64,000 bases of DNA from Kiritimatiellia bacterium (GTDB taxonomy: Bacteria > Verrucomicrobiota > Kiritimatiellia > RFP12 > UBA1067), in assembly GCA_045599445.1 (NCBI GenBank), contig JAZRWB010000027.1, forward strand, positions 1,344-65,343. Direction: 5' to 3'. The number at the start of each line of letters is the position of its first letter. Position 1 is the first letter of the stretch. The notes under the pieces were generated by a model. It was not told the origin of the DNA and did no database searches. It was given only the letters and a program-made list of their open reading frames with translations. Below, in pieces: positions 7,448-59,447 of the stretch. The position numbers and the translations under genes are program-made.

Positions 7448-7503
7448 AAGTGCATAACTCCTTTTATCCATAGTCATATACCTATGGCCTATATTACACT
7501 ATA

Positions 7504-8853: not shown

Positions 8854-8941
8854 TGGCGGAGGGAGAGGGATTCGAACCCCCGAGACCTTGCGGCCCGCCG
8901 GTTTTCAAGACCGGTGCATTAAACCACTCTGCCATCCCTCC
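8854..8941 (-). tRNA. tRNA-Ser (anticodon UGA), 88 nt, CCA encoded
   Basis: The reverse complement is GGAGGGATGGCAGAGTGGTTTAATGCACCGGTCTTGAAAACCGGCGGGCCGCAAGGTCTCGGGGGTTCGAATCCCTCTCCCTCCGCCA. Acceptor stem is 7 bp (GGAGGGA/TCCCTCC). Anticodon stem is CCGGT/ACCGG with loop CTTGAAA. It has a long variable arm and a GGTTCGAATCC T-loop. Confidence 0.95.
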
Positions 8942-11965: not shown

Positions 11966-14705
11966 AAAATCCACCGGTTATCGAGCGCGAACAAGCTCGG
12001 ATTTTATCTATCGTTCCCTCGGCGACGAGCTCGCCGCCCTTCTCGCCGCCGCCCGGCCCCAAGTCGATTATCCAATCCGCGCTCTTGATAACGTCGAGAT
12101 TGTGCTCGATTACGACTACGGTGTTGCCCTGATCGCGCAACTTCAAAAGGAGCTTCATCAACTTCGCGACGTCGTCGAAGTGCAGCCCCGTCGTCGGCTC
12201 GTCGAGCAGATACAGCGTCCGCCCGGTCGCGCGGCGCGAAAGCTCGGTCGCGAGTTTGATGCGCTGGGCCTCGCCGCCGGAGAGCGTGGTCGCGGACTGG
12301 CCGAGTTGGATGTAGCCGAGCCCGACGTCGACGAGCGTTTTCAGCTTGCGCGCGAGCGACGGCACTTTGGCGAAAAACTCGTACGCCTCGCTCACCGTCA
12401 TCGCCAGCACCTCGGAGATGTTCTTGCCGCCGTAGGTTACCTCCAGCGTCTCCGAATTGAAGCGCTTGCCGCCGCACTGTTCGCAAGGAACGTACACGTC
12501 GGGCAAAAAGCTCATTTCGAGTTTCTGGACGCCATCGCCGCCGCACACCTCGCACCGCCCGCCCTTCACGTTGAACGAGAAGCGGCCCGCGGTGTAGCCG
12601 CGCGCCTTCGCAGACTCGGTCGCCGCGAAGAGTTCGCGAATCTCCGAGAAGAATCCGACGTAGGTCGCGGGGTTCGAGCGCGGCGTGCGCCCGATCGGCG
12701 ACTGGTCGATCTCGATTACCTTGTCGAAGGCGTCGACGCCAGAAAGCTTGCGGTATTTGCCGGGCGTTTCCTTCGCGCCGTAAAGTTCGCGTTTGAGCGC
12801 GCGCTTTAGGGTTTCGTCGACGAGCGTCGACTTGCCCGAGCCGGAAACGCCGGTTACGACGGTGAACGACCCGACCGGGATATGGACGGTAAGATTCTTG
12901 AGATTATGCTCCGATGCGCCGGAAAGAACGAGAAACTTCTTCGGCGAGGCCTGGTTCTTCGAGGCGCTCTCCGCGACCACTCGCTTCCGACCCGAAAGGT
13001 AATCCGCGGTCAGCGACTTCGCCTTTAACAGTCCCCGGTAGTCGCCTTGGTAGACGACCTCGCCGCCTTCGCGACCCGCGCCCGGCCCCAAATCGACGAT
13101 CCAATCCGCCGCGCGCATCATTTCCGCGTCGTGTTCGACAATGACGACCGTGTTGCCGCGATCGCGCAAATCCTTCAAAGTCGCGATCAGCCGTTCGTTG
13201 TCGCGCGGATGCAGCCCGATCGTCGGCTCGTCGAGAACGTAGAGAACGCCCGTAAGCCCCGAACCGATCTGCGTCGCGAGGCGAATCCGCTGCATTTCGC
13301 CGCCGGAGAGCGTCGCGCTCGCGCGATCGAGCGTAAGATAATCGAGCCCCACATCAACGAGAAATTCGAGTCGCCGGACGATTTCGCCGAGAATGTCCTT
13401 CATTCCGCGAAAGGCGAGCGGCTTGAAAAACGCGAGCGCCTCGGTTACCGGCATCGCCATCACCTCGACGATGGTCTTGCCGCCGACCGTCGCCGAACGC
13501 GCCTCGGGACGAAGCCGCGCGCCCTTGCACTCGGGACAGGTGCGATAGCTCCGATACGCGCCCCACTTCTCGCGCGTCTCGTCGTCCTCCGCCTCCGCAA
13601 GTCGCTTTTCGAGCGTCGCGATCACGCCCTCGAAAGGCCGATCCACGCTGCGCCACGGCAAAACGAGATCGTCCTTAAAGCCATGCATGAGATTGTGGCG
13701 AAACGCCGATGGCAGCTTCTCGTAGGGCGTCGAAAGCCGAACCTTGTACTGACGGGCGATCTGCTCCAAAAGCGCGTTATAGTACATGATCGCGTTGTGC
13801 CCCGCGCGTCGCCAAGGATGAATGCACTCGCGCAAGGGAAGGGTCTTATCGGGAACGATCAGCTCCTCGTCGAAATAGTAGAGCTGGCCGAGCCCGCCGC
13901 ACTTCTCGCACGCGCCGAACGGCGAATTGAACGAGAAGGAGCGCGGCTTCAGTTCGCCGAAGGAAATTCCGCAATGCGGGCAGGCGTTAAGCTCGGAAAA
14001 GACCTCGTCGTTCGCGTAGAGCGTACCCGAGCCCGCCTTAAGCGCCGTCTCCACCGAATCGACGAGCCGCGTCCGCTCGCACGGCACGACCAGTCGATCG
14101 ACCACGACGTCGATATTGTGGGCGCGCTTCTTGTCCAACTCGGGCGCTTCCTCGACGAGATACGTCTCGCCGTCAACTCTTACGCGCGCGAAACCATTGC
14201 GCTTCAAGGTCGCGAAAACCTCTTCGTGGCGACCCTTCTTGCCCTTCACCACCGGCGCGTAGAGAACGAGCTTGCCGGGCTTTTTAACGAGCGCGTCGAC
14301 GATCTCCTCCGCCGATTGGCGCACTACCGCGCGACCGCACTTCGGACAATGCGCCGTCGCGACCGAGCCGTAGAGAACGCGCAGATAGTCGTGAATCTCG
14401 GTAACCGTCGCCACAATCGAACGCGGATTGCCGCTCGTCGTGTGCTGTTCGATGGAGATCGCCGGCGAGAGTCCTTCGATGCGCTCGACGTCCGGCTTGG
14501 CGAGACGATCCAAAAACTGCCGCGCGTAGGCCGAGAGCGACTCCACGTAGCGACGCTGGCCCTCGGCGTAGAGCGTGTCGAAGGCGAGCGACGACTTGCC
14601 GCTACCCGAAAGCCCCGTAATCACCGTAAGCGAATTGCGGGGAATCGTTACGTCGACGCCCTTGAGGTTGTGCACTCGGGCGTTCTTGATCGTAATATCG
14701 GTCAC
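11958..14705 (-). CDS. uvrA: Excinuclease ABC subunit A
   Basis: [50 protein letters not shown], two ABC modules and CxxC zinc fingers. I chose GTG 14705 (GTGA overlap with the rho stop). The 42 residues upstream in the track ORF overlap rho and show no UvrA-like sequence. Confidence 0.93.
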
Positions 14706-16171
14706 TGCAAGTTCTTGAGATCCAGCGCCAGGAGGAATTCGGGATTCGACTTGGTCTTCTTGAGCGAATTGAGAACGCTCTTCATCGCGCTTTCCGAGCC
14801 CGCCGCCGAGAGAATTCGGCGCAAGCCCCAAGTCTTCTCCAGCTCCAACGGATCGAGCAAGAGGTCTTCCTTGCGCGTACCCGACTTGTCGATGTCGATC
14901 GCCGGGAAGATTCGCTTGTCGGCGAGCGCGCGATCGAGCACGATTTCCATGTTGCCCGTGCCCTTGAACTCCTCGAAGATGACTTCGTCCATGCGGCTAC
15001 CGGTGTCGACGAGACCGGTCGCGATAATGGTCAGCGAGCCGCCGCCCTCGATGTTGCGCGCCGCGCCGAAGAAGCGCTTCGGCCGGTGCATCGCGAGCGC
15101 GTCCACGCCGCCGGTCAGAATCTTTCCCGAATGGGGCTGGACGGTATTGTAGGCGCGCGCCATACGGGTAATGGAATCGAGGAGAATGACGACGTCGCGT
15201 CCGTTCTCCACCTGGCGCTTGGACATTTCGATTACCATCTCGGCGACATTGACGTGGTGTTGCGGCTCCTCGTCGAAAGTCGAGGAAAGTACCATCGCCT
15301 TGGTGTTGCGCTGCATATCCGTAACTTCCTCCGGCCGCTCGTCAATCAAGAGAATGATGAGCATCGCGTCGGGGTGGTTGGCGGTAATGGCGTTCGCCAT
15401 CTTCTGCAAAAGCACGGTCTTGCCGACGCGCGGCGGCGCGATGATAAGCCCGCGCTGCCCGAAGCCGATCGGCGTAAAGAGGTCGATGACGCGCGTCGAA
15501 TATTCCTTCGCTTCGGTTTCGAGAATGATCCGACGGGTCGGGAAGGTCGCGGTCAGGTTCTCGAAGTGGACGACGCGCGCCGCCACCGACGGCTCCTTGC
15601 CGTTGACGAGATTGACGTTGCCGAGGCAGAAGTAGCGATCGCGGTCACGCGGATCGCGAATCGGCCCTTCGATGATGTCGCCGGTGCGGAGCGCGTGGCG
15701 ACGAATCTGCTGCAAGGTAACGAACACGTCCTCGGGGCAGGCGAGGAAGTTGTTCTTCGCCGAGCGCAAGAACCCGTGACCCTCGCGGACGATCTCCAGA
15801 CACCCCGACGCGATTACCGAGCCGCCGCGCGCGAGATAGGTGCGGATGGCGGCGAAAATAAGCTCATGCTTGCGGTAGCTGCCGAGTTCCTCCGGATCCG
15901 CTCCCGGCATCATCCGCTCGACGATAAGCGGCGCCGGCCAAGTCTGGATGTCGGCGAGCCGGTATTCCTCGAGCTCGGGATTGCGGCGCGGGTTGGCGGC
16001 CTCGTCCGCGACTTCCGCCGGTCGCTCCGTCGGGAGCGGCGCGTTCAAAAGCGGATTCACCGACTCCACTCCGCCACCGACCGGCGCCGACCGCTTGACG
16101 AACGGTTTGCGACGCGGGACGAATTTCTTCTTCATCGAATCGGCGAATACGTCTAATTCTTCTTCAGCCAT
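14702..16171 (-). CDS. rho: Transcription termination factor Rho (with an N-terminal extension)
   Basis: [19 protein letters not shown] (Walker A), [27 protein letters not shown] and [39 protein letters not shown]. Confidence 0.96.
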
Positions 16172-16659
16172 GATACCAGTTTCTCCGCTTCCTTGCGCAG
16201 CTCCTTCGGGGAGCCGTTGTTTTCGATTACGTAGTGGGATTTTTTCGCCTTGTCGGCTACGGGCATTTGCGCCTTAAGCCGCGCTTCGGCTTCCTCGCGG
16301 CTATAACCGCGACCGTTCATCATCCGTTCGAGTTGCTTCTCCCGATCGGAGACGACAGCGCATATTATATCATATTCGCCCTGCCAACCGACTTCAAAAA
16401 GTAGCGGAATGACGTGCAGCTTCTCCGGCTCCGCCTTAAGCCGCGCTTTAACGAGCGGATGGATTCGCGCCTCCAGCTCGCGGCGAGCGACGGGATTCTT
16501 GAAGACCGTTTCCCGCAATTTCGCGCGCTCTTCCTCGCCGATAAGCTCGTGAACGACGTCATCCGCGTCGAGCGTGGCGACGCCGAGTTCGTTCAAGTAT
16601 TGACAAAGGAGGGATTTGCCGCAGGCAATCCCTCCCGTGAGACAGATTCTTTTCATCAA
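16153..16659 (-). CDS. coaE: Dephospho-CoA kinase
   Basis: [13 protein letters not shown]-loop and [10 protein letters not shown] in a 168-aa protein. It overlaps the rho start by 19 nt. Confidence 0.88.
16364..16372 (-). promoter_or_regulatory. Intragenic extended -10 box TGATATAAT inside coaE, candidate rho promoter
   Basis: The minus strand reads TGATATAAT (16372..16364). It is encoded by coaE codons TAT GAT ATA ATA (YDII), 192 nt upstream of the rho ATG. Confidence 0.4.
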
Positions 16660-16662
16660 AGG

Positions 16663-19600
16663 TTATTCGACCGTCGGCGCGGCCTTGACCTCGGCCTCGT
16701 CGGCGGCCTCGTCTCCCGGACGGTACTCGCGTCCGGTCGGCTTAATGAGGCGTCCGGTCACGAAGATCAGCAAGTTACGCTTGATCGTCTGCTCGGCGTG
16801 GCTGCGGAAGAGCCGACCGATGAACGGAAGATCGCCGAGGAACGGGACCTTATCATCCATCGCCTTGCGCTGCTCGGTGATGAGACCGCCCAAAACCACC
16901 GTCGAACCCGGAGTAATGTAGACCTTGGTGTCGATCGAACGGACGTGGAAGAACGGCTGTTCCATCGGCGCGTCGTAATAGGTCATATTGTCCGACTGCG
17001 ACTTGGTGAGGTTGTCGAGCGCGGCTTTCGCCGCATCCGTCTCGGTAGTGATAATCCATTCGGCGGTCTTCGGCGGAATTTCCGCAATCGCCTGAATCGA
17101 GTTGGCGAGACCGTCGAAGATGCCGCCGATGCCCTCGAAGTTCTGGAGCGAGCTATTGCCCGTGAACGGAATCTTCATACCGTAGTTCTTCCAAGTCGGC
17201 TCGTCGACGACCTGCGGCTTGAGCTCGAGCTCAATTACGTTACCGCTCTGGATGTAGGAAGGCGTGACGTCGAGAATAACGCCGACTTCGCGCATCTCGA
17301 AATTCTGGGGCTCGACGATTGCGAGAATCGACGACTGCGAACTGCTGTTGTATCCGCCGCCCGAGCTCGACGACTGGAGCTGGACGTCGTAGTCCTTCGG
17401 ATAGAGGAATTCGGTAACGACCTTGATGGTCGCTTGCTGACCGTTGCTCGTCACGATCTTCGGCGCCGACAAAAGGTCGGTATCGCTACGCTGCGAGAGC
17501 ATGTGGAGAATCATCGAAAGATCCGCGCTACCGAGGAACGCGTTAACCCGCATGAACTGGTCGTTGGTCGACTTGCCTTCGCCGGAAATGTGGTTGCTCA
17601 TCGTCGAGAGATAGCGATTACCATTACCGTATTCGCTACCACCGCCGAAGGCATTAAGCCCGATACGCTCGCGAGAACCGGTGGAGCGATGCCAAGCGGT
17701 TCCCGAAGTAGCGGCGCTCGCCGCCGATCCGCCGGTTCCGGACGTGGTCCCGCCGACATCACGATTGTCGAAATTGAAGCCCGAGGACGAGCCGCCGTCG
17801 CCACTCGCCGAGGAAACCGGCGAGAACGTTCCGCCGTGAATGCCGAGCGCCCGCGCTACGCCACCGTTCAAATTGATGCCGACGTCGTCGTTCAAAATCC
17901 ACTCGAAGCCGAGCGAGTTGAGGTCTTCCTGGGCGACTTCGACGAAGCGAGTCTCGATTTCGATCATCTTCGGCTGGGCGTCGAGCGCTTCCAAAACCTT
18001 CTCGAACTGCGCGAGGTTTTCCAGCGTGTTGTGAACGAAAAGCTTGCCGAGCGCCTTGATGTGGACGATCGACGAACCTTCCGGCCAGTTGACGCCGAGC
18101 TGGGTAAAGACGTTCTTCCAATCGCGCTGTTCCTCGTCGTCCTTCGCGCTCGCGCGGTTGACGGCGCCGAAGCGATTGCCGCCCTTGCCCGAGTTGAGTT
18201 CCTCGGCGGCGGAGGCGACGTGTTCGGAAAGGACGTCTTGAACGTCGTACTGGCGCGAGACCATATCGGAGCTCGCCTCGCCCTTCGCCATCACCATCAC
18301 AACCGAACCGTTCACGACGAACTTGTAATCGACCGTATCGCAGACGAGCTTCAAGGCGTCGTAGAACGAGATGTCGCTCGCGGCGAGCGTGGTAATAACC
18401 GCGAGCCCCGTGGAAGGCGCCTCGACGTCGCCGCCAAAGCCCTCGCTCTCCTCGCTCCTCGCGACGGTAACCGGCTGGGGAGTGCGCAACACGAAGTTAA
18501 ACCCGCGCTTCTCCGGCGGCAGATCCGGACGGTCGTAATCCTTCGACATCTGGCGGAACGAGTCCACCGCCTCGACGATGGTCGCCGGCGGCTTGAACGA
18601 AATGTTCGGCAGGCGCATTTCCTTCATCCGGCGGATGATCTCCTGTTCCTGCGAGCGCTCCGGATCGGCGCCGAGCGCAACCTTGCGGGTCTCGGAATCG
18701 ACTTCGCGAAGCTGGGCGGCGTTAACCGCGTAGACCGGCCGCCACGCCTCGTCGACATCGGCGATCATACCCTCGCGAGCCGCTTCGCGCTCCTGCTTCA
18801 AAATGGTCTGGCGCTTGCGTTCGATCGTCCGTTTAAGCCGCATCGCCTCCTGATTCGCGGGGTCGCTGACGAGCACGATCTCGGCCTCTTCGAGCGCCTT
18901 CTTCATTTCCCTAAGTGCCAAGTACTGGCGGGAACGACGAAGGTGCTTGGCGATATTGTCGCGATCCGACTTGTAGTCCGACTCGTTCTTGCGGTGCTTA
19001 AGCTCGCTGACATCAACCTTGTTCGCTTCGGGATCGCCCTCCTCGAGCCAATCTTCCAAAACCGCGCGCGCCTTCGGGTGGCGCATGTCGACGGCCTTCT
19101 CCATCAACTTGACCGCGCGATCGCGACGACCGTACTCGTCTTCCTGCAAAGCCGAGCGATAAAGCCCCTCGGCGATTCCCTGATCGCACTCGCGACGCAA
19201 CTTCTTCATCGCGGGACGGTCGTTCAAGAGTTTGGCGGCGATACCGTAGTGGCGAACCGCGTCGGTAAACTCCTCGTTCTCCATCGCCGCTCGCGCCTCG
19301 ACGATTTCACGCTTCGCCTGGGCATCGAGCGCGCCGCGACGCAGCCGCTCGGTGGCCGCGAGTTCGGCGACAATCGCCGCATCCCCGAGCGCCACGGGAG
19401 TTATCGCCTTGGGCGCCTCGCCGGCGGCGACCGGCGCTTCGCCGCTTTCGCTCGCCAATTCGTCCAAAAGGTTCAACACATCGTCGACTTCCTGATTGCT
19501 CGCCACCGTCGGAGCGGGCGCGGGAGCAGGCTCGGCAACCGGAGCGGGCTCCGGCTCCGCAACCGGCGCGGGCTCGGGCTCGGCAACCGGAGCAACCGCC

Positions 19601-19761
19601 GGTGTCTCGGCTGGAGCTTCTGCCGGCGTCTCGGCCTGCTCGGCAAGATCCTTCAATAGATCGTCGAGATCATCCTGCGCAAAGCCATACTGCGGAACGG
19701 CGATTGCACCCGCAACTGCGCCAATGGCGACAATTTTCCTGATGTTCGTCATATTGACCAC
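16663..19761 (-). CDS. Secretin (type II secretion / type IV pilus outer-membrane channel; Amuc_1098-type)
   Basis: The C-terminal secretin signature is VVLGGLITEQRKAMDDKVPFLGDLPFIGRLFRSHAEQTIKRNLLIFVTGRLI. It has a signal peptide and a Pro/Ala/Glu-rich N-terminal linker. The start is ambiguous: GTG 19761 or ATG 19752, downstream of AAGGAG at 19770..19765. Confidence 0.9.
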   Translation of the reverse strand: MVNMTNIRKIVAIGAVAGAIAVPQYGFAQDDLDDLLKDLAEQAETPAEAPAETPAVAPVAEPEPAPVAEPEPAPVAEPAPAPAPTVASNQEVDDVLNLLDELASESGEAPVAAGEAPKAITPVALGDAAIVAELAATERLRRGALDAQAKREIVEARAAMENEEFTDAVRHYGIAAKLLNDRPAMKKLRRECDQGIAEGLYRSALQEDEYGRRDRAVKLMEKAVDMRHPKARAVLEDWLEEGDPEANKVDVSELKHRKNESDYKSDRDNIAKHLRRSRQYLALREMKKALEEAEIVLVSDPANQEAMRLKRTIERKRQTILKQEREAAREGMIADVDEAWRPVYAVNAAQLREVDSETRKVALGADPERSQEQEIIRRMKEMRLPNISFKPPATIVEAVDSFRQMSKDYDRPDLPPEKRGFNFVLRTPQPVTVARSEESEGFGGDVEAPSTGLAVITTLAASDISFYDALKLVCDTVDYKFVVNGSVVMVMAKGEASSDMVSRQYDVQDVLSEHVASAAEELNSGKGGNRFGAVNRASAKDDEEQRDWKNVFTQLGVNWPEGSSIVHIKALGKLFVHNTLENLAQFEKVLEALDAQPKMIEIETRFVEVAQEDLNSLGFEWILNDDVGINLNGGVARALGIHGGTFSPVSSASGDGGSSSGFNFDNRDVGGTTSGTGGSAASAATSGTAWHRSTGSRERIGLNAFGGGSEYGNGNRYLSTMSNHISGEGKSTNDQFMRVNAFLGSADLSMILHMLSQRSDTDLLSAPKIVTSNGQQATIKVVTEFLYPKDYDVQLQSSSSGGGYNSSSQSSILAIVEPQNFEMREVGVILDVTPSYIQSGNVIELELKPQVVDEPTWKNYGMKIPFTGNSSLQNFEGIGGIFDGLANSIQAIAEIPPKTAEWIITTETDAAKAALDNLTKSQSDNMTYYDAPMEQPFFHVRSIDTKVYITPGSTVVLGGLITEQRKAMDDKVPFLGDLPFIGRLFRSHAEQTIKRNLLIFVTGRLIKPTGREYRPGDEAADEAEVKAAPTVE
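19529..19600. repeat. 3 x 24-bp in-frame tandem repeat in the secretin N-terminal linker
   Basis: The units are GGCTCGGCAACCGGAGCGGGCTCC, GGCTCCGCAACCGGCGCGGGCTCG and GGCTCGGCAACCGGAGCAACCGCC. They encode (EPAPVAEP)-type repeats: VAPVAEPEPAPVAEPEPAPVAEP. Confidence 0.85.
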
Positions 19762-19783
19762 CTACTCCTTATTTTCAAGCACA

Positions 19784-19812
19784 ATTATACTCTTTATTGT
19801 TTCGTTATTCAA
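19784..19812 (-). promoter_or_regulatory. Sigma70-type promoter for the secretin gene (-35 TTGAAT, 17 nt spacer, -10 TATAAT)
   Basis: The minus strand reads TTGAAT (19812..19807), then 17 nt, then TATAAT (19789..19784). The -35 is built from the upstream gene's last codons and stop (CTT GAA TAA). There are 22 nt between the -10 box and GTG 19761. Confidence 0.6.
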
Positions 19813-20899
19813 GGGTTTTGAGCGTACGTTTCTTGCCGGAGGCGACATCCTCCAACGTGACTTCGGCTTGGTCGCCGACCGGTTTTACGGATAGCACTCG
19901 ATAGCGCTGACCGTTCAGATCGATTTCCGAGCCGCTGATTACCTCAAAGGTCTTGACCTCGCCACGAGTGTAGGTCAGCGTCGCCTGCACGTCGATCGGG
20001 GTTTTGGTCTTGCCGCTCGGCTGGGCGACCAGCTTGACGATCTTATGATCCTGGATACGCTCCAGCGTGGCCTCGGAAACGTCCGCGACCCGCGTAAGCC
20101 CCTCCGCGCCCGGAACCGGAACTCGCGCGGTCTTGGCCTCGTAGTTCTTGACGATGTAGCCCGGCTTGTAGGTCTTGTCGGAATCGGCGATCTCCTCGCC
20201 GACGAGCGCGGTCAGCAAAACGCCCTTCTTCCCGAAGCCGTTGAGCCGGTCGGGGTCGAAGAATTTGAGTCGCCAGCCGGCGGGAATCTGCTGCGCTTCG
20301 CGGAACACGAACGGCACGTACGTCTCCTTGAGCGGAAGGACGATCGCGAGCGAGTCGAGATAGTCGGGGTGGCTCTTCGCGTCCGTCGGATCGGTCTTCG
20401 CCTCGAATTCCTCGAGGTTGGTGAATCCGTCGCCGTCCTTGTCCTCGTCGGCGTCGGCGGCGTTCGCCGGATTCAAACCGTATTTCCGCTCCCAATCGTC
20501 GGGCAGACCGTCCTTGTCCGCGTCGAGAATCGCGGCCACGGCCACTTCCTGTTCCTCGCCGCAGAACGGACACTTCGGAAACTTCTTCACGTCACCGCCG
20601 ATTACCTTTTGGCATTTCTTGCATTTAACGCGCACTTCGCTCGCGAGAAAGCTCTCCTTGTCCTCGGCGACGGTCGCGAGCGACGCGGGGTTCTTGACGA
20701 ATTTCACCGCAGAGGCGAATTCCGCCATGTCCTCTTCCGCCACTTCGGTTTTCGCCGGCTTCATCCGCTCGACGCGCAACTTCACTTCGGCAACCGCGCT
20801 TTCCTCGTCCGCGGCGTCGGTAAGCGCGAAAAACGCGAGCGCTCCCAATAGTGCCACCGCTCCGAGGCCGGCCACCAGCCATTCGTAATGCTGCTTCAT
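19805..20899 (-). CDS. Membrane-anchored pilus-cluster protein with a zinc ribbon and TSP3-like Ca-binding motifs (Amuc_1099 position)
   Basis: N-terminal TM segment (WLVAGLGAVALLGALAFFAL). CKKCQKV...CPFCGEE zinc ribbon (~20555-20626). DADKDGLPDDWERKYGLNP and DADEDKDGDGFTNLEEFEAKTDP (~20365-20530). ATGA overlap with the upstream gene. The family call rests on synteny only. Confidence 0.6.
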   Translation of the reverse strand: MKQHYEWLVAGLGAVALLGALAFFALTDAADEESAVAEVKLRVERMKPAKTEVAEEDMAEFASAVKFVKNPASLATVAEDKESFLASEVRVKCKKCQKVIGGDVKKFPKCPFCGEEQEVAVAAILDADKDGLPDDWERKYGLNPANAADADEDKDGDGFTNLEEFEAKTDPTDAKSHPDYLDSLAIVLPLKETYVPFVFREAQQIPAGWRLKFFDPDRLNGFGKKGVLLTALVGEEIADSDKTYKPGYIVKNYEAKTARVPVPGAEGLTRVADVSEATLERIQDHKIVKLVAQPSGKTKTPIDVQATLTYTRGEVKTFEVISGSEIDLNGQRYRVLSVKPVGDQAEVTLEDVASGKKRTLKTLE

Positions 20900-21834
20900 T
20901 TCGCGCCCTCCTCCAGCGAATTGAAATCGTAAACCGCGAATTTGAGATTGACCGTGAACGGCGGATCCGTCACGGGGTCGGCGACCTTGACGTTACCGAC
21001 GGGCTTCTCGGCCTCGACCGTCGCCTCGGCTCCGCGACGCGCGCGCCGAGACGATCTCGCCTCGGCCTTCTTCTCGCCGGCGAGGGCGGAAGCGAGCGAA
21101 TCCTGATCGTGCTGAAAACCAAGACTTTCGACGACGACGAATCGGTCGGCGACGGTAAGCGCGTTAAGCGCCTTGACGAGCGCCGCCGGGCGCGCGACGA
21201 ACGAAAACTCGTAACGCATGGCCTTGGGAACGGCGGATTTTTCCGATGCTTTCGCGTTCTTCTTCGCCGGCTTCCGGTTCTTGGGCGAAGTCGCGGGCTT
21301 GGCGGCCGCTTCGTCCTTGATAACGGCGAGCGACACGAACTTCTCGACGCCCGCGCCCTTCAACGCGTCGGCGACGGTCGCGACGTCGTCCCACTGGCGC
21401 TGCAACGTTCCGAGCTCCGCTTCGGAGGGCATCGCGCCGCCGTTGATGTAGTCCTTAAAGGGCCCGTATTCGAATTCCGCGTCGATGCGCTTGGCGTCGC
21501 GACGCAAAAACTCCTTGAACGCCGCCGGCGTGGTCGGCTCGAGCTTGCGATCGCCGGCGGCGACGAGTCGCTCCGCGTCGTCGCGCCAGGTCGCGAAGGT
21601 CGATGCCGCCGCTTTCAGCGCCTTGACGTTGCCGGATGTCGGATAAATGGATTTCCGGGAGAGTTGCTCCGCCTTGACGAGACAGGTCTCGAGGCCGTCC
21701 GTACCCTCTTCGTAGTCGCCTTCGAGCGCGACGACCTTTTCGCCATAGGCCCGGTAGGCGAGATATGCGGCGACGACGACGATCAGCGCGAGCGCGCCAC
21801 CGACGATCGCCAGAAGTTTCTTCGTCTTCGTCAT
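20896..21834 (-). CDS. Amuc_1100-family pilus-like membrane protein (312 aa)
   Basis: Start ATG 21834 (MTKTKKLLAIVGGALALIVVVAAYL TM anchor) overlaps the PilM-like stop as ATGA. TTPAAFKEFL, LVKALNALTVADRFVVVESLGF and VNLKFAVYDFN resemble segments of A. muciniphila Amuc_1100 as I remember it. This needs alignment to confirm. Confidence 0.65.
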   Translation of the reverse strand: MTKTKKLLAIVGGALALIVVVAAYLAYRAYGEKVVALEGDYEEGTDGLETCLVKAEQLSRKSIYPTSGNVKALKAAASTFATWRDDAERLVAAGDRKLEPTTPAAFKEFLRRDAKRIDAEFEYGPFKDYINGGAMPSEAELGTLQRQWDDVATVADALKGAGVEKFVSLAVIKDEAAAKPATSPKNRKPAKKNAKASEKSAVPKAMRYEFSFVARPAALVKALNALTVADRFVVVESLGFQHDQDSLASALAGEKKAEARSSRRARRGAEATVEAEKPVGNVKVADPVTDPPFTVNLKFAVYDFNSLEEGAK

Positions 21835-23435
21835 TTGAACTTCACCTCCACCGTAAACTGTTCGAGTTCGCCGCCCTTGCCGAGCCGCACCTGTTCGACG
21901 ATCTTGATGCTCGTCGGATCGATCGCGGACTTGCCCTTGAGCTTCTCGACCACCGTCTCGGAAACGGTCTTGCCGTTCGCGCCCTTGACGCGATCGCTCC
22001 ACGAACGAATCGTGATCCGACCGTCATTCGACCACTTTTCGATCCACATCCCCGGCAAAAGCGCTTCCCGAACCGCGTTGAGCCGCTGCACCGTCGCCGA
22101 ACGCGAGAGCATCAGATCCTTGAGCGCCGTCGCCTCGGACTTGGCCGCGTCGAGCTCCTTGGCGGCCGCGGTGATTTCGCGATCGACCGCGCTCAAGGCG
22201 CTCACCGTCGTCGCCACCGCGTCGCGCTGCGCGGCGATGGTCGTCGCCTCGCGATGGTAGGTCATCATTACCGCGACAAGCGCAAGCGCCATCATCGCGC
22301 CGCCGGCGACGAGATACGGGATGCGGGCGCGCTCGGCGCGATCCGCGACGATTGACGGCGGCAGGAGATTGATTGCGAAGCGCGCCACTCCCGCCACGTG
22401 CAAGGCGATGCCAACCGTCGAGGCGATGATGGGGCTCGCATTTTCGAGCTCGGAAACGTCGAGCGCTCCGAAAGCCGTTTTTTCGAAAGGATTGAGGTAT
22501 TCGACTTCGATGCCCAGCGATTCGGCGAAGAACCGGTCGATTTGCGGCAGGAGGGCGCTACCACCGGTAAGATAGAGCTTGACCGGGGCGTTGCCGTGCT
22601 GCTGGCTGCGATAGAAGTTAATCGATCGGGAAATCTCGGCGTGGAGCCGCGTCATCACCGCCCGGCACGCCTTGGAGACGCGATCGACGATTTCGTCGGC
22701 GTCCTCGGTAACGCCGCCCTCGGCGACGTAGCCCTTCTCGCGCTTCAAGGCCTCCGCCTCTTCGAGCGAACAGCCGAGCGCGCCGGAAATCTCCTTGGTG
22801 ATCGCATTGCCCGCGATCGGAATCGAACGGTTGTAGAGCTTGTCGCCCTCGACGACCACGAGCGAAGTCGTGCGCGCGCCGATATCGAGAACGATGGCGC
22901 ACGCCTCCGCCTCGTCGGGACGGTTGAACTTGAGCGCGTTGGTAATCGCGAGCGGCGAAACGTCCACGTAATCGGGGCTGAAGCCAAGTCCGGTCAACGC
23001 CGAGGTAATCGCCTCGATCTGGTCGACCTTGGCCGCGACGATCATCACCGACTTGTCGCCGTTCTCGGCGTCGCCGAGCACCTGCCGGTCGCAGACCATC
23101 TCGTCGATCGGGAAGGGAATGCCCTGCTCGATTTCGTAGCGAACGAGCTGCTCGAACTTCTCCGCGCCGCCGACCATCGGAATCGACGCGAACTTCGGAA
23201 ACGTCATCTGCCCCGAAATCGCGAGCGCGAGCTTGCCGGGCTTAAAGCCCTTCGCGCCGATGATTTCGCGCAAGGCGGGAGCGAGAATGGTTTCGACGTT
23301 ACCGCCGTCGAGCGGCGAGGCGAGTTCGGCGACACCGTATTTAAGGAGCTTTACCGCCCCTTTCGCGCCGAGCTCGTACTCCGCGAGCGCGACGTTCGCC
23401 GCGCCGATGTTGAGAGTCTGAATTGTCTTGGCCAT
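21831..23435 (-). CDS. PilM-like actin-fold pilus assembly protein fused to a PilN-like TM/coiled-coil segment (Amuc_1101-type)
   Basis: The N-terminal ~340 aa are PilM/FtsA-like (LNIGAANVALAEYEL, VMIVAAKVDQIEAITSAL, IVLDIGARTTSLVVV, LYLTGGSALLPQIDRFF). Next come FAINLLPPSIV and the TM segment IPYLVAGGAMMALALVAVMM (~22250-22400). A coiled-coil and beta region follows, as in PilN. Confidence 0.8.
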   Translation of the reverse strand: MAKTIQTLNIGAANVALAEYELGAKGAVKLLKYGVAELASPLDGGNVETILAPALREIIGAKGFKPGKLALAISGQMTFPKFASIPMVGGAEKFEQLVRYEIEQGIPFPIDEMVCDRQVLGDAENGDKSVMIVAAKVDQIEAITSALTGLGFSPDYVDVSPLAITNALKFNRPDEAEACAIVLDIGARTTSLVVVEGDKLYNRSIPIAGNAITKEISGALGCSLEEAEALKREKGYVAEGGVTEDADEIVDRVSKACRAVMTRLHAEISRSINFYRSQQHGNAPVKLYLTGGSALLPQIDRFFAESLGIEVEYLNPFEKTAFGALDVSELENASPIIASTVGIALHVAGVARFAINLLPPSIVADRAERARIPYLVAGGAMMALALVAVMMTYHREATTIAAQRDAVATTVSALSAVDREITAAAKELDAAKSEATALKDLMLSRSATVQRLNAVREALLPGMWIEKWSNDGRITIRSWSDRVKGANGKTVSETVVEKLKGKSAIDPTSIKIVEQVRLGKGGELEQFTVEVKFK

Positions 23436-23453
23436 GGTTTCTCCGAAATCAGT

Positions 23454-24152
23454 TTATTGGATCGTCGCCTCGTAGTCGTTCGGGCAAACGAGACCCCAAA
23501 TCGTCTTGGAGCGATCGACGAGTCCCTGACGGCGCTCGATCATGGGCTTGCCATCCTCGGTCTTGGCGTTCATGATTTGCGAGTCTTCCCAGAACTTGGT
23601 TCCCGTTTCGATACCCTTGATCTCGCTCCAGCAATCTCCGCCGAGAGTATCGCCCTTCTCGTTGGAAATTTCCAGACCCACCGCCTTGGGCTCGCCGTAG
23701 CGCTCCAAGTACGACGGCGGCAATACCACCGACGCGCCGTGGGTACCGGCCGGAATGTTGAAATAGGCAACGGTCGTCGTAAAGTAGCTGTAGGGCGAAA
23801 GACCTTCGCGATTGCCCTTGTTCTCCTTCGCGGTCTTGGTTTCCAGGAGGACGTGCCAAGTGAAAGTAAGCTGGTCGAGGAACCGTGACTCGTCGGTGCC
23901 GAATGTAGTGTACTTCGTCTTGAGAACAATCCACTGGCGCGGCTTCTTGAAGTACTCGTTGAGACCGTTGATGTTCGGCGCCATCGCGAGCGCGCCCTGG
24001 CCGAGCTGGACTTGTTCGACGAGAATCTTCGCCGCCTTGCCCGTGGTTTCCATTTCGTCGTTGCCCGCCATCGCCTTTTGCTTGCCGCGGGTCGCCGCCA
24101 ACGCCGTCACCGCCGCCATCGCCACCGTCGCAACTACCATCAACTGCTTCAT
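23454..24152 (-). CDS. Secreted protein, first gene of the pilus-like cluster (Amuc_1102 position), 232 aa
   Basis: Start ATG 24152 (MKQLMVVATVAMAAVTALAA signal peptide), preceded by GCGAGG. The longer track ORF (to 24707) is an Arg/Gly-rich artefact overlapping kpsF. The family call rests on synteny only. Confidence 0.6.
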   Translation of the reverse strand: MKQLMVVATVAMAAVTALAATRGKQKAMAGNDEMETTGKAAKILVEQVQLGQGALAMAPNINGLNEYFKKPRQWIVLKTKYTTFGTDESRFLDQLTFTWHVLLETKTAKENKGNREGLSPYSYFTTTVAYFNIPAGTHGASVVLPPSYLERYGEPKAVGLEISNEKGDTLGGDCWSEIKGIETGTKFWEDSQIMNAKTEDGKPMIERRQGLVDRSKTIWGLVCPNDYEATIQ

Positions 24153-27334: not shown

Positions 27335-30300
27335 TTACTTTTGGAATACCTTGATTTGATACATGGCTCCGGTCGCGTCCTCTTCCGCGAGCGGCATTTC
27401 GATTACCGCCTCGGTCTTGCCGAGCGTAATCGTGCCCTCCTTGGCGACGATCGGCTTCGCGGCGAGCGAAGTGTACTTCAAGATCCGGTATTCGACCGTG
27501 AGGTTTTCCACCGCCGGGAAGGTGTAGAAGACCGCGAGTTCCGAATCCGTCGCGGCCGACTCGACATCGGCCACAACCTTGAACTTCGCCTTGCCGTCCA
27601 CCACCTCGAAGTTGGCGATTGAAAGCGAGTGTTCGGCGATCTTGGCATCGGTCGTCGCCTTGATAATGGCGTCGTTCGGATCCTCGCCTTCCCCGACATC
27701 GAGATTCATCATCGCCGCCAGCAAGTTGGCGTTGCCGAGCGAGGTGCTCATCAGCGTGGCAAGGCCGCTCGCCGCTTCATTCTTCTTGCTCGTGTCGTCC
27801 AAAGTGCCGACCAAGTCCTTCATCGAGACATAGCTACCGGCGGTGCGCGGGTCGAGCTCGGCGGCGCCATTGGCGGTCAGGTTACCACTCTTCTTCCATT
27901 CCCAGGCATCGGGCAAACCATCCTGATCGGTGTCGCAATCGTCGATGTAGACGGTTACCAGATTATGCGTTCCGACCTTCGGCCCGACCTTGATCGACTT
28001 CGAGGTGTAGATTATGCCGTCGCGCTGATCACGAACGCAGGCATATCCCCAGCTTTCCCAATTGTCGCGCTTGCCGTTATTGTTGGTGTCGATGTAGGCC
28101 ATTACATAGTAGCTGCCCTCGGTAAGCCCGATGATCGAGGCGTTCTTGGCCGGCGCAGTCGTCGTGCTACTGACGCTATTCTTGTCCTCGGTCTTGACAT
28201 AACCCGCAGAGGCGGAAAGCCCGGAGAAGTCGGGCGTATCGAACGCCTCGACGCGAACGGTACCGCCAGTGAGAACGTCCGGGTGTCCGAAGTACTTGAC
28301 CGCGACTTCAATCGTGCCGTAATCGAGCTGATCCTCGGGAACGTTCATTCTGAAGGTCGCCGTCGCGCTCCACTTGGGCTGACGGAACTTCGCGTTGAGC
28401 GACGTGATCTTCCAGTTGTAAGTTTTGTCGTTGGCGAAGACCTTGCTGCCGGGAGTGATGTCGCCGACGCAAATCGGCGCAACCCAGGTGTAGTAGCCGT
28501 CGGCGCCTCTGGCCGGCATCAACTGAATGCCGCTATTCCAAACGAATCCATCATCGCCAGAAACCTCGATTTGGAACGCGGTATAGCTGTTGTAGCCGTT
28601 GTCGGTCCACTTGAAAACCGGACGCGCCGAATACACCACCCCGTCGCTCGTTCCGCCCGGCGCCACCGGCGTCGGAACCTTGCGCAAAGCGTAGCTATCG
28701 TAGCGACGAACGATGCTCTGCGCAAGAATCGTCGCGTTGGTGCTATTCGCGATATCGGTAATGCCAGTCTTTGTGCCATTGACGGAGTCGTCAATCTGCG
28801 CATTGCCCAATATAATGCTGAAGATCGCCTCCGCGGTGTCGGCGTTCGCCGCCCCTTCGGGGATTATACCCCAGCCAATATCGTAGATTCCTTTGTCCGG
28901 ATCCAATATATCGCCCTCGTGGAGGTAATCGCGCCCGGACTCGGAGAAGTCAATAACTTTGTCCATCACCTTGTAGCCGTTGATGTACACGTTTTCCGCC
29001 TCTTCGGCGCCGTTCATCTTCACCGCCGTCATATAGGCGCGAACCCAGTGGGTCGTGGCGTCGACCGCCGCGCCGCTCGACACGGAATCGATGACATCGC
29101 CGGTATCGGAACGAATGACCTGGCGATCGGTGAGGCCGGTCGTGGCCTGATAGCGCGCGAACACCGGGTTCGTATCGGTGAGCTCGATAGCGAGCTTGCC
29201 GTAGTTCCAGCCGACGTCCACGCCGTAGGCGATACCGAACGGTTCGCCCGGGTCGTACTTGCCGTTCGCCTGAATAGTGTCGGCGAAGACGATGAAGTTG
29301 TTCTTGCCCTCCCTGATGTGGCCGACGGAGTTGTTGGTCTCGCTACGCGGATCGGCGTCGCCGAGGTAATAGACCGCGGTCTTGCCCGCCGTCACCGGCT
29401 TCGACAACCAGGAGAAGCGCATGTAGCAGTTCGCATAGGTGTAGACCGACCAGCGGCTCGCGTCCGTGGGGTCGGCGAGATTGTACGCGAAGTCCATATA
29501 TTCCGGGAGCGCGGTAAAGTCGAGCGTAACCGCACCGGTCGCGTAATTGATTTCACCGAGCACGATGTCCCTGCCCGTTTCGTCCTTATGCCAGAGGACG
29601 ATGTCGCCCTTGCCCGAGCCGTCGTTGCGCATCTTGTCGTGCGCCGACTCTTCCCAAGTCGCGGTGTCGGCGCCGTAGATGTAGCCCTGGCCGGTGATGA
29701 TGTCGACCGCGACCCAACCCGGATCCTTGCACTCGAGTTTGAACGAGCCGGCGACCACGCTGCCGGGAGAGAGGTGGGTCATCACTTCTCTGCCAGGGTT
29801 CATCCCCACGAACTTGGTCTTCGCCATGCCGTTGGTGTTGGAGGTGGTCCTATTGTCATTGTCCGCATTCACCTCGCCAATCGTCCACTTCGCATCGGGA
29901 ATCGACTGGAAGGTGCGGCTCTTCTCGTCGGCGCAATTCCACGCCTGCACCACGATCGGGCAGTTGACGTTCTGCTCTCCGAGGTAGGTAATCGACGCCT
30001 CGATAATCGGCACGGGATACTGGGCGACCTCGATGCCGTCGATGGCGAGCGAGGCGTTTTTCGTCGGATCGGTGTCGGCCTGGAATTCCGCGTAGTTCGT
30101 CCACCCGTCGCCGTCGGCGTCCTTGTTGGCGTCGTAGACGTAGGGGCTGACTGCGGCGAGATTGCCGAATTTCACTTCCCAAGTATCGTCCATGTGGTCG
30201 TGATCGGTGAAGACGTCGGCGATATAGAGACGGCCGAGCTTCGCGTAGGCGTCGGGCACGTAGCCGTTGGTCTTGGGATTGATCGGATCGAAGGACGTTC

Positions 30301-33300
30301 CGGGAATCGTGTAAACCTCGTTAAGGAGGTACTCGACGTAGTTCGAAAGTCCGTCCTTATCGCTGTCGGTGTGGCCGTTTTGGCCCGAGATACCGTAGAT
30401 CTGCTCCCACCAATCGGGCAGTCCGTTGCCGTTGAAGTCCGCCTTATCGCGGAAGTCGGGGTTCTGCGTGCCGTCCGGCATAAGTCCGGCGACGAGATCG
30501 CGCATATACTCTTCGCCGGTCTTGCCGGGATACAGCGTTTCGTACCAGTCGGGAATGCCGTTGCCGTTAAGGTCGGCGCCGGTCTGCGTCCAGGCGGTCA
30601 TCGCGCCCTGGCCATCCCAATAATCGACGTCGCGTTTGGCCCAGGCGTCGCCCAACGGGACGAGATCGCTGTTGCCCACGAAGCCATAGCGCGCTTCGAA
30701 GCGAATCTTCATCACCGCCTCGTCGAAAGCCGGATACGCTCCCGCCAACTGCACGGTCTTGCGTAGACGCATCCCGAGCTCGTCGCCCAAGGCGCCGAAG
30801 CCGTAGGGGTTGCCGCCGTTGGGAATCGCATAACTGTCGAAACCGACGGTGGACGAAGGCGCGTAATTCGCGCGGTTCTCCGCCCAGAAGAGCGAGTCGG
30901 CGAACGAACCGTCGAACCGCTTCAGGTGCGTAACCGTATTTTCAATCCACGGCACAAGCCGATAATCGGTGTAAACCGCGCTCTTGACCGTGCCGTCGTT
31001 ATCCGCCCACCATTGCGGAATCTGATAGCCCTCGTTATCGCCATCGTTGACCTTCGGATCGACGCCGAAGTCGTTCGGGGTTTTTGCAACATCGCCCGCC
31101 GCGACCGCACCGGGCAACGACGAGAAGTTGTAATGCTGAATGAGTTGCGGCGGCAGAACTTGCTTGCCGGCGGTCGTGGCGTTGTCATTCCGCTCGCCGT
31201 TCTTCTGCCACGCGGCGTAGATTTCGTCGCGATTCGCGGCAACGTCCTCATCGGTGTACGCCTTGGTGTATTCGCTCTTAATCGCATCGCCCGCGCGAGC
31301 GCCGTCCCAAATGCGGACTTCGGAGACATAACCCGCGAAGAAGTCCTTGAGATACGTGCCGAGAGTTTCGACGACCGGGAACTCCATCGGATCGAGAATA
31401 TGCCGTGCGCCGATTACGAATGCGCCCGGGTTCGCCACGAACGAAGCCGAAGGATAGGAATTGGTGCTGGTCGGATCCTGCAGGAACGTGACGACGCCGT
31501 TCGCCGGCACCAACGAAGTCGCGGTTCGAACGGTTTCTTCGCCGTTGACGTAGAGGCAAAGTTCGACGCCATCGTAGGAGAGCGCAACATGCGACCACTG
31601 GTTAAGCGGCAACTCCGACGGAGATTCGATCGCACAGCCGGTGTTGACGCCGACGGTCCCGGACTCCACCGCCGCCGAGCTATCGAAAAGTCCGCGCACC
31701 TTGCCCTCGGCGGTAAGCTCGAGGCGGAAATTGGCACGCCAGTGCGTTTCGCCCTGAATGTCGCCCGCGGTCGCCGGATCGTACGTAGAGCCACGTTCGA
31801 GAATCGTGCCGCCCTTGGCCTCGGGCTTCACCCAGCACTCTACCGTGAACTGGCGGAACATATCGTACGAATTGTTGAATTCGACCGGAGTGCGCTGGTA
31901 AGCGGCGCCCGCGCCGTCGAAGTGAATCGCCGAACGATGGTAGGGATCGGAGCCAACGAGCGGATCGGTCGCACCAATCACGCCCTTGGTGACTTCAATC
32001 GAGTCGGTCGTCCAGTCGTTGTCGGTATCGAAGCCCTCGTTACGCTCGAACGAATAGGCGAACATGCCGTCATCGTCCGTAGTCGACGGAAGCCAACCAT
32101 ACGCGCCGAGACCGGCCAAATAGCCATAGCTCTGACGAGTAACGGAGAGTAACGCCGTCGGCTCGGTCATCCAAAGCGGCGAGGGGTCGGTGTGTTTGGT
32201 GGTCGGGCTGGTGAGGTTGCCGTTGATCGCTTCCTCGAAGTTGCGGAGCTTGTCGCCGTCGGGATCGCCAATCGGATCGCCGGCAAGCCACGGATACTTC
32301 TCGAAATCGAGCGAAGGCGCCGTATTGCCGAACTCGTTCCAAGCATTCATGTCGGCGCTGATCAGGCCGTAGGCGTCGGCGATGATATCGCTGCCCGAGC
32401 CGCCGTAAATTGGGTTAAGACCGTGATAGAGTTCCCAATAATCGTCCATGCCGTCGTCGTCGCTATCCCAACGACGCGGATCGGTCGACACGTAGGTAGC
32501 GGCTTCAATGCGTTTCTGGCCCAAATTCGCGGGGAATAGCGATTCGGTCACATAACGCATCAATGCCGTCGGCGGCAACATGATCTTGCCGAACATGTAG
32601 ATGTTGCACGGGTCCCAGACGTTCGGCGCCGGAGCCATGTAGCCGAGAGCCGCCCAGTCCCACTCCTCGCCGTTCGCGGCGTAGAGGTTCTGCGGATCGT
32701 TGTAGATGTTGACCATGCTGTTGGGCATCATTTCGTCGCCAAAGACCGCAAGCTTGTAGGCGTCGACATCGCAGTAGTCGAACTGCGGATATTCGTAACC
32801 CGCAACCCCTCCGGCGGCGTCTTTGCTCGCCCGCGGGCTTACTGCCACATCACCGGGCTCAATCTCTTCTTCCTCTTCCTCGGCGGCCGTCGGCATCGGG
32901 CCGATGGTCGGAAGCGCGTCCTCGTCGCCAAGCCACCAGACCACGCGACCGTTGAGCGGAGTTTCCGCGTCGTCGTAACGGAACGAACGCACCGCCTGCA
33001 CCAGATATTCCTGCCAGTTCTGCAGACCGTCGCCATCGAAGTCGTAGTCGCGGAAGGTGTGCGTACGACTGTCGATAATGCTACCCGTATAATCCGTGAA
33101 CGCATCAAGACCGTGGGTCGCGTCCATACCGCCGATAATGTAGTAGCCGTTGCCGTTGTCGCCGACGCCTTCATCATCCGCGCCTGTCGGTACCATCCGG
33201 GCGTTGAAAAGCCCGTCGGCGATTTTAAGCCGCTCGGTGTATTCCGCGGCGTTGTTGAACATCACATTGCCGGCGCCGTCCACCACAATGCCGGCGAACT

Positions 33301-50897: not shown

Positions 50898-51830
50898 TCA
50901 GTTTTCCAACTTGTCGTACTTCGAGCCGTCGAAAGTTACGTCAAGCCCCTTGCAAAGCCACTCGGCGAGCTCTTCGGTATTATTACTGCCGTTCTCGTCG
51001 CTCTTGGGCTGGATGAGCCGCTCGACGTGTCCATCGGCGAAAACCACGTGCGCGCAACGCTTGTTGCCGATGAAATGGTTGAAAGCGAGCTTGTCGGCGC
51101 TTCCCCCGAGGTCGGACAAACCACGGTACTGGAAAATCGAATCCGCCCCATTTTCGGTTTCGTCCAGTTCCGCCATCTTGCCCTCGTCGGCAAGAAATTT
51201 CAATTCAGCGAACAAAAGCCGCCGATCCGCCCGATTAAGCGACGAATACAACGTGCCGTAGTAATGCTCGTCAAAGGTCTTACCCTTCTTCGCGACATCG
51301 CCGCCGAAACTGGCGTTCATCGCGTAACTCCAGCGCGGAACCTTATTGAATTTTTGCGCCACCTTTTTGTGCGATGGGCAAATGTACACGTCGAAATTCT
51401 GCGCAACATACTTCCACAATACGCCATTGGTGAGGCAATAGAGTCCCTCGTCATCCCGCTGTCCGTCGTTGTCCGCATAAGCCGACGTGAACCAACTGCC
51501 GCTGGCGACAGATGAAGTCGGCTTCGAAGCGTATGCACCGTCGGAATACCAGGAAATCCATCCTCGACGTTCGAAATACACCCGCTTGCTATTGCCGATT
51601 CCCTGCGACTCGTCCAATGAATACGATTGCAAGGACGCCGCCAACGGAAGATACTGATTGGCCATACCGTAACTTTGACATGCACTCGCGAGATTGCGCA
51701 TATTGGCGAGACATTTCGCGGCACGAGCGGATTCGGTAGTACCGCTGAGCGCCCCCAACAAAACCGCAATCAAGATTCCCAGAATGCCGATGACGACCAG
51801 CATCTCCACCAATGTAAACGCCTTTTTCAC
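50898..51830 (-). CDS. Prepilin-type N-terminal cleavage/methylation domain protein, DUF1559/H-X9-DG-like pseudopilin (310 aa)
   Basis: GTG 51830 gives (M)KKAFTLVEMLVVIGILGILIAVLL. ESARAAKCLANMRNLASACQSY is the DUF1559-type helix. The C-terminal NHFIGNKRCAHVVFADGHVERL resembles the H-X9-DG motif, but here with 13 residues between H and DG. GGGAG lies upstream as a likely RBS. Confidence 0.8.
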   Translation of the reverse strand: MKKAFTLVEMLVVIGILGILIAVLLGALSGTTESARAAKCLANMRNLASACQSYGMANQYLPLAASLQSYSLDESQGIGNSKRVYFERRGWISWYSDGAYASKPTSSVASGSWFTSAYADNDGQRDDEGLYCLTNGVLWKYVAQNFDVYICPSHKKVAQKFNKVPRWSYAMNASFGGDVAKKGKTFDEHYYGTLYSSLNRADRRLLFAELKFLADEGKMAELDETENGADSIFQYRGLSDLGGSADKLAFNHFIGNKRCAHVVFADGHVERLIQPKSDENGSNNTEELAEWLCKGLDVTFDGSKYDKLEN

Positions 51831-51843
51831 TTTCCGGCTCCCG

Positions 51844-56271: not shown

Positions 56272-56274
56272 CGC

Positions 56275-58252: not shown

Positions 58253-58265
58253 GGCATCCTCCGAA

Positions 58266-59438: not shown

Positions 59439-59447
59439 ATATCCTAA

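Follow-up and report, generated by a model that had tools for sequence, protein, structure and literature searches.

A five-gene locus in Kiritimatiellia resembling the Amuc_1098-1102 (MUL2) cluster of Akkermansia muciniphila

In a 64-kb stretch of DNA from a Kiritimatiellia bacterium (64,000 nucleotides, hereafter the window), five tightly packed genes lie in one direction on the minus strand at 16663-24152. We consider it likely that the locus represents the Amuc_1098-1102 or MUL2 system in Kiritimatiellia and encodes the scaffold with which a machine of the type IV filament superfamily, to which type IV pili and type II secretion systems belong, spans the envelope. In A. muciniphila, MUL2 comprises Amuc_1102 (MUL2A) and Amuc_1101 (MUL2B), followed by Amuc_1100, Amuc_1099 and the secretin Amuc_1098, and all five have counterparts in the window, with order and orientation unchanged. 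MUL2-type systems have been described before and are widespread in related bacteria; the present locus adds a distant member and not a new system, and we found no earlier description of it for the class Kiritimatiellia in the literature surveyed. A first-pass annotation, made from the letters of the window, had already reported five co-directional genes here and likened their order and composition to the Amuc_1102-to-1098 cluster. The list of open reading frames (ORFs) agreed with the former claim and the family models described below with the latter. In transcription order, the genes are:

g1, 23454-24152, minus strand: 232 aa, predicted exported beta-sandwich protein, Amuc_1102-like (MUL2A-like), with a Sec-type signal peptide
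g2, 21831-23435, minus strand: 534 aa, Amuc_1101-like, predicted PilM-PilN fusion
g3, 20896-21834, minus strand: 312 aa, Amuc_1100-like, predicted bitopic membrane protein of PilO/GspM fold with an N-terminal transmembrane helix
g4, 19805-20899, minus strand: 364 aa, Amuc_1099 family, with an N-terminal transmembrane anchor
g5, 16663-19752, minus strand: secretin, 1029 aa from a conserved ATG (1032 aa if read from a GTG at 19761)

Neighbouring genes overlap by 4 nt at g2/g3 and again at g3/g4, and the gaps between g1 and g2 and between g4 and g5 are 18 and 43 nt, respectively.

Family assignment and predicted architecture of the five proteins

The cognate Amuc family was the top NCBIfam model for each of the five proteins, and for the three small ones it was the sole match above noise. 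The scores were E=3e-5 and 23.7 bits for g1 with Amuc_1102_rel (equivalog cut-off 55), E=4e-114 and 382.6 bits for g2 with Amuc_1101_fam (equivalog cut-off 650), E=2.6e-11 and 43.5 bits for g3 with Amuc_1100_fam (equivalog cut-off 180), E=1.5e-25 and 90.5 bits for g4 with Amuc_1099_fam (curated cut-off 50, passed) and E=6.6e-128 and 428 bits for g5 with Amuc_1098_fam (cut-off 750), the last match covering profile positions 8-804 of 805. Likeness to the Amuc families was thus found for g1, g3 and g4 alike, and the earlier suggestion that the 312-aa protein is related to Amuc_1100 was supported. All 30 sampled relatives of g1 matched the Amuc_1102 model only, and all 30 of g3 the Amuc_1100 model only; precomputed Pfam assignments give PF28028 (Amuc_1100) for g3 of the window itself and PF28178 (Amuc_1102) for near-identical relatives of g1. 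When PDB sequences were searched by hidden Markov models (HMMs) with g1, g3 and g4, as single sequences and as profiles, neither 7DSZ nor 6KNY nor any PilP was reached. The one nominally significant PDB match of g1, 7UE2, is a designed repeat protein and was discarded as spurious.

A locus from a Verrucomicrobiia metagenome-assembled genome (L076, 9244-16527) bridges the window proteins and the Amuc families at the level of sequence. The product of its first gene scores above the Amuc_1102 cut-off and can be aligned with the g1 family by hhalign (E=5e-6); that of its third gene spans the Amuc_1100 profile in full and also matches GspM weakly (1.2e-4).

Predicted structures extended the assignment of g1 and g3. 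With the AlphaFold2 model of g3, the ten best Foldseek matches in the PDB were the Amuc_1100 crystals 6LAD, 6KNY and 6LAF (E 1.8e-7 to 1.9e-6, probability 1.00, target-normalised TM-score 0.53-0.60), a comparison that the first-pass annotation had proposed. They were followed by PilO of Pseudomonas aeruginosa (2RJZ, E=3.8e-3), PilO of Myxococcus xanthus (3JC8_Oa, 9.9e-3) and 5UVR. The likeness to PilO lies in the fold only, and no match at the sequence level was found. For g1, the three best matches were chains of Amuc_1102 (7DSZ, E~3e-6, probability 1.00, target-normalised TM-score 0.51-0.58), with the next one at 1.8e-2. In the structural alignments with the Akkermansia crystals, g1 and g3 share 14-20% sequence identity with their targets. 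The models thus assign to g3 the Amuc_1100 fold, which is of the PilO/GspM type, behind an N-terminal transmembrane helix, and to g1 the Amuc_1102 beta-sandwich fold behind a signal peptide of the ordinary Sec kind; the prepilin motif (G-F-T-L-x-E) was not seen in g1.

The features recognized in g2 are the following:

22398-23408, minus strand: predicted PilM actin-like cytoplasmic domain (aa 10-346; Pfam PilM_2, E=8.3e-35)
21834-22382, minus strand: PilN-like tail (aa 352-534), with INLLP motif, transmembrane helix, coiled coil and C-terminal domain
22359-22373, minus strand: INLLP motif (aa 355-359)
22266-22322, minus strand: predicted transmembrane helix (aa 372-390), followed by a helical stretch

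Besides the Pfam match, g2 passed the TIGR01175 pilM model (149.5, cut-off 133). A profile built from 23 tails aligned with M. xanthus PilN (3JC8_Na) at E=1.2e-10, from PilN residue 3 (IRINLLP...) through the transmembrane helix and the coiled coil, and PilN was the commonest Pfam family among the tails. These matches identify g2 as a protein in which a predicted PilM actin-like cytoplasmic domain is covalently joined to a PilN module, in agreement with the fusion proposed previously. The arrangement appears as a trait of the wider family and is not peculiar to this locus: an exhaustive search found 651 representative relatives of g2 at E<=1e-30, nearly all of 545-700 aa and with matches extending to query residue ~467, and among homologues taken from genomes an INL[LM]P-type motif was present in 80 of 81 and a transmembrane segment in 76 of 80. 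Alignment of the tail with the g3 family by hhalign gave nothing (probability 3%), so that no PilN/PilO paralogy is demonstrable by sequence.

It has to be considered whether g2 could instead be a division or shape protein of the FtsA/MreB type, in a cluster unrelated to pili. Amuc_1101 was historically annotated as FtsA (PMC5332112), and g2 has partial Pfam matches to FtsA (2.9e-16) and MreB (6e-7); the PilM_2 match, however, spans the whole domain (8e-35), the TIGR01175 cut-off is passed while the FtsA models stay far under theirs, the tail is PilN-like and the gene always occurs together with one for a secretin. The PilM_2 and TIGR01175 scores together with the tail effectively refute this identity, and we regard it as scarcely credible.

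The product of g5 is predicted to be an outer-membrane secretin. A signal peptide, a Pro/Ala-rich linker and a helical N-terminal region were recognized in it besides the secretin domain (Pfam Secretin, E=3.6e-34), which carries a Gly/Ser-rich insert, and it misses the cut-offs of both classical models, scoring 142.6 with GspD TIGR02517 (cut-off 351) and 124.5 with PilQ TIGR02515 (cut-off 284). Although the gene itself was correctly recognized in the first-pass annotation, its length of 1032 aa was probably not. The frame from GTG 19761 meets a stop in L002, and ATG-ACG-AAC (MTN) is kept in three genomes, so that the secretin most likely starts at ATG 19752 and is 1029 aa long. Just before it lies the promoter candidate also noted in that annotation:

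19812..19784, minus strand: sigma-70-like promoter candidate, TTGAAT-17 nt-TATAAT, 10/12 matches, its -35 box overlapping the g4 stop codon

It is the best such site within 10 kb, where 4 sites were found against 1.2 expected. The site is kept in a 68%-identical relative (L001), and a relative of ~50% identity (L002) has TTGCGC-17-TATACT, in which the -10 box is preserved as TATACT. The presence of the site thus stands, whereas its activity as an internal promoter for the secretin is plausible only.

These assignments establish the layout of the locus as PilM-N, PilO-like protein, an Amuc_1099-like protein (X) and secretin, with an exported protein of Amuc_1102 fold as the first gene product.

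Conservation of the locus and of the putative metal-binding module in g4

A genome-wide scan yielded 582 relatives of g2. Its best 80 loci were labelled Kiritimatiellia, Lentisphaerae/Victivallales or Verrucomicrobiota, and Akkermansia was not among them; the Akkermansia-type Amuc_1099 and Amuc_1101 were therefore compared through proxies, namely L076 and the coverage of the NCBIfam profiles. Using iterated HMMs on those loci with enough flanking sequence (n=59), all five genes were found in the same order in 58 of the 59 evaluable loci of Kiritimatiellia, Lentisphaerae and Verrucomicrobiota. Over 34 loci, mean identity to the window proteins was 50% for g1, 51% for g2, 32% for g3, 40% for g4 and 50.5% for g5. 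By this measure, the Amuc_1100-like g3 appears as the fastest-evolving member and g1, the PilM-PilN fusion and the secretin as the most constrained; g1, jointly the most conserved, always holds the first position.

Downstream of the secretin gene, and abutting it, are two housekeeping genes:

coaE, 16153-16659, and rho, 14702-16171, both minus strand: coaE overlaps rho (ORFs of the window; Pfam calls in relatives)

In 24 of 51 loci coaE follows the secretin gene directly, with rho next in 23 of those 24, and in 16 further loci of the 51 coaE is found downstream of it on the same strand, within ~6 kb. Akkermansiaceae MUL2 loci have also been drawn with coaE and rho as neighbours (PMC13174399). 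The secretin-coaE-rho linkage recurs across loci of Kiritimatiellia, Lentisphaerae and Verrucomicrobiota, and for an envelope machine this tie to housekeeping genes is unusually deep.

Two putative metal-binding elements are found in g4:

20561-20623, minus strand: four-cysteine zinc-ribbon-like motif (C93, C96, C110, C113)
20408-20524, minus strand: two TSP3-type calcium-binding motifs of the DxDxDG type, DADKDGLPDDWE ... DKDGDGFTNLEE

The first-pass annotation had described a CxxC...CxxC ribbon and two DxDxDG motifs in this protein, and all four cysteines and both motifs were invariant in 27 close relatives. Pfam TSP3_bac matched g4 above threshold (E=8e-6) and was present in all 27 relatives. 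Of 77 g4 homologues taken from genome loci, at least 69 have four or more cysteines just before the TSP3 motif, and 76 have DxDxD. The ribbon and the TSP3 motifs are thus predicted family-wide traits, though not in all lineages, and the conservation that the first-pass annotation had asked about holds for most homologues with clear exceptions. L070, L073, L074 and L075 keep one of the four ribbon cysteines, and the protein at the Amuc_1099 position of L076 retains the transmembrane anchor and the C-terminal domain but neither the ribbon nor the TSP3 motifs. Because of these losses, the metal-binding module appears dispensable in some lineages. The match of the Amuc_1099 profile to the window g4 covers 106-318, from the TSP3 region onward, as against 2-319 in the homologues that lack the cysteines, and for this reason the Akkermansia-type Amuc_1099 probably has the TSP3 region and no Cys4 ribbon. 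No relative was detected for the C-terminal domain of g4. Pfam scans of the 27 relatives at E<=1 returned TSP3 and weak zinc-ribbon families only, with no PilP and no GspC; g4 itself has no lipobox, being membrane-anchored by a helix, and PilP was absent from its Pfam matches and from the PDB profile search.

Host and surroundings of the cluster

The host is an uncultured Kiritimatiellia bacterium of gut or rumen and no close kin of Akkermansia. The nearest named relatives are Kiritimatiellae/Kiritimatiellia metagenome-assembled genomes from rumen and gut samples, and the closest contig (GCA_045599105.1) is 95% identical in rho and 86% in the secretin. The window takes up nearly all of a 65,365-bp contig. 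The cluster belongs to a long minus-strand run, with a kpsF-like SIS/CBS gene, pta and ackA upstream and coaE, rho, uvrA and recA downstream. All identified genes, from ~63.5 kb down to 1 kb, are on the minus strand and the GC skew is negative in 30 of 32 windows, consistent with one replichore and strong co-orientation. An Rfam scan revealed no element within or beside the cluster, and a tRNA-Ser (anticodon TGA) at 8854-8941 (minus strand) was the sole Rfam or ARAGORN match in the window.

The cluster proper is without a prepilin gene, as the first-pass annotation had stated, but this does not apply to the window as a whole. Eight prepilin-type genes lie 27-35 kb upstream (50898-59477, minus strand), and their products show the prepilin methylation motif GFT[LI][IV]E at the N-terminus; T2SSG is present in one of them and DUF1559 in one. 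No ATPase, platform or peptidase gene was found near them at 50.9-59.5 kb. The run is interrupted by an ORF of 984 aa (51844-54798) with no Pfam match, and a G+C dip at 56-60 kb extends over prepilin genes and the gene of an AAA_14/DUF4143 ATPase (59523-60698). The other lower-G+C stretch (0.50-0.53, as compared with ~0.62 around the cluster) holds an ORF of 2167 aa (974-7477, minus strand) without Pfam match.

Between the prepilin genes and ackA are giant co-directional ORFs, all on the minus strand: 27335-39448 (4037 aa, with Laminin_G_3 and TSP3 repeats), 39843-48245 (2800 aa, Gly_rich_2) and 48238-50616 (792 aa, no family). Upstream of ackA-pta-kpsF and the cluster, L001-L003 likewise encode a giant LamG/TSP3 protein, and in L014, L020, L022 and L029 long upstream ORFs that match g4 suggest one there too.

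Readings of the machine and their meaning

If the locus is indeed the Kiritimatiellia form of MUL2, the PilN tail of g2 would pair with g3 in the inner membrane, like PilN with PilO or GspL with GspM. With its inner-membrane anchor, periplasmic Cys4 ribbon, two calcium-binding TSP3 motifs and C-terminal domain, g4 would occupy the place of PilP or GspC and bridge to the secretin, and g1 would be exported as a strongly conserved partner, either handled by the scaffold or forming the element around which it is assembled. The genes for the motor ATPase, the platform protein and the prepilin peptidase would have to lie elsewhere. In Akkermansia, the proteins of the cluster are abundant in the envelope fraction (PMC5332112). 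Since mucin handling by A. muciniphila requires MUL genes (PMC12418764; PMC13174399), by analogy the machine probably attaches the cell surface to complex glycans of hosts or algae, or takes these up.

Several points weigh against this interpretation. Four of the five proteins miss the NCBI equivalog cut-offs and g4 alone passes, which by the NCBI rule makes them distant homologues and not equivalogs, as had been proposed from the outset. The sequence profiles of g1 and g3 did not reach the Amuc_1102 and Amuc_1100 chains among PDB sequences, and the models of both are of medium confidence (predicted local distance difference test, pLDDT, 67.5 for g1 and 67 for g3) with target-normalised TM-scores of 0.5-0.6. 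No similarity of g4 to PilP or GspC was detectable with Pfam or the PDB profile search, so that its equivalence to them and its bridging role are argued from position only. PilB/GspE, PilC/GspF and PilD were not found in the 64-kb window. Amuc_1100 has been reported at the cell surface (PMC5332112), a poor fit to a PilO-like role in the inner membrane, and the glycan function is borrowed from a species that belongs to another class.

One alternative is a type II secretion-like conduit of GspL/M/C/D-like proteins that builds no pilus and exports the large repertoire of glycoside hydrolases and sulfatases, or runs in the reverse direction and admits large glycans to the periplasm. GspL has the same architecture as a fused PilM-TM-PilN protein, and g2 likewise combines a cytoplasmic actin-like domain, one transmembrane (TM) helix and a periplasmic domain in a single chain. 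The small bitopic partner with its predicted ferredoxin-like periplasmic fold and the bitopic connector resemble GspM and GspC, and the Amuc_1100 homologue of L076 has the weak GspM match mentioned above. Among the classical models the secretin prefers GspD (142.6 bits) to PilQ (124.5 bits), and giant LamG/TSP3 surface-type proteins are encoded just upstream, here and in relatives. MUL genes have moreover been linked to intracellular accumulation of mucin products in Akkermansia (PMC12418764). In contrast, the window proteins gave no GspL, GspM or GspC match, the GspD score is far under its cut-off, and neither gspE, gspF nor gspG-K is adjacent. Apart from DNA uptake, no established case of import by way of a secretin is known. 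We consider this alternative rather improbable.

The locus could also be a classical type IVa pilus alignment complex with its secretin (pilMNOPQ), making true pili for adhesion or twitching from the upstream prepilins, with g1 as an accessory. The gene order is indeed that of M, N, O, (P) and Q in M. xanthus and P. aeruginosa (3JC8, 2RJZ), g2 passes the TIGR01175 pilM cut-off, its tail is related to PilN and g3 in fold to PilO, a secretin is present, and the eight N_methyl prepilin-type genes, one with T2SSG, are on the same strand. However, the Amuc models surpass the PilQ and PilM models widely, and the PilQ TIGR02515 score (124, cut-off 284) is far too low. Unlike in the type IVa pilus, PilM and PilN form one polypeptide here, and the position of the PilP lipoprotein is taken by an unrelated, membrane-anchored protein with ribbon and TSP3 motifs and no PilP signal. 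There is also an extra first gene, the Amuc_1102-like g1, whose joint highest conservation and constant first position an accessory role leaves unexplained. No pilin, ATPase, platform or peptidase gene adjoins the cluster, and PilB, PilC, PilD and PilT were not found in the window. Genomes of the Planctomycetes-Verrucomicrobia-Chlamydiae (PVC) group are very rich in prepilin-like genes, so that the proximity of the prepilins is weak evidence. We therefore judge a classical type IVa pilus unlikely.

The Amuc_1098-1102 interpretation is favoured by the agreement with A. muciniphila in gene content, order, orientation and best-matching models, by the Amuc_1100 and Amuc_1102 folds, by the PilM protein with a PilN-type tail and, as in Akkermansiaceae MUL2 loci, by coaE and rho downstream (PMC13174399). 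The window locus differs from that of A. muciniphila in its low identity to the crystallised proteins (only 14-20%) and in its host class. Further differences are the putative Cys4 ribbon of g4, which the Akkermansia-type Amuc_1099 probably lacks, an extra N-terminal segment of ~115 aa in the secretin, comprising the signal and the Pro/Ala-rich part, and the upstream neighbours kpsF-pta-ackA and the 4037-aa LamG/TSP3 protein.

A bolder reading can be formulated. On this view, an envelope machine of the MUL2 type would be of ancient origin, would occur almost universally in Kiritimatiellia, Lentisphaerae and Verrucomicrobiota, and would be linked genetically to coaE and rho; within the type IV filament superfamily it would stand as a third branch of its own. 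In place of a pilin with a class III signal, its key subunit would be an Amuc_1102-like beta-sandwich protein that is exported by Sec and is no prepilin, and its Amuc_1099-like connector would be periplasmic and metal-dependent (Zn/Ca). It would capture or import large glycans and serve neither pilus extension nor protein secretion. Taken jointly, we find these propositions very doubtful.

To our knowledge, no effector protein of Akkermansia has been studied more than Amuc_1100. The survival of all five genes of the module in a different bacterial class, where g1 and g3 are only 14-20% identical to the Akkermansia crystal structures in structural alignments, with the order kept and coaE-rho often kept, argues for a conserved envelope job of the PilM-N/O/(P)/Q type and not for a host-signalling speciality. 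The comparison also singles out the constrained parts of the system, namely the Amuc_1102-like protein, the PilM-N fusion and the secretin, together with a lineage-variable putative metal-binding module in the Amuc_1099-like protein, and the locus is useful as comparative material.

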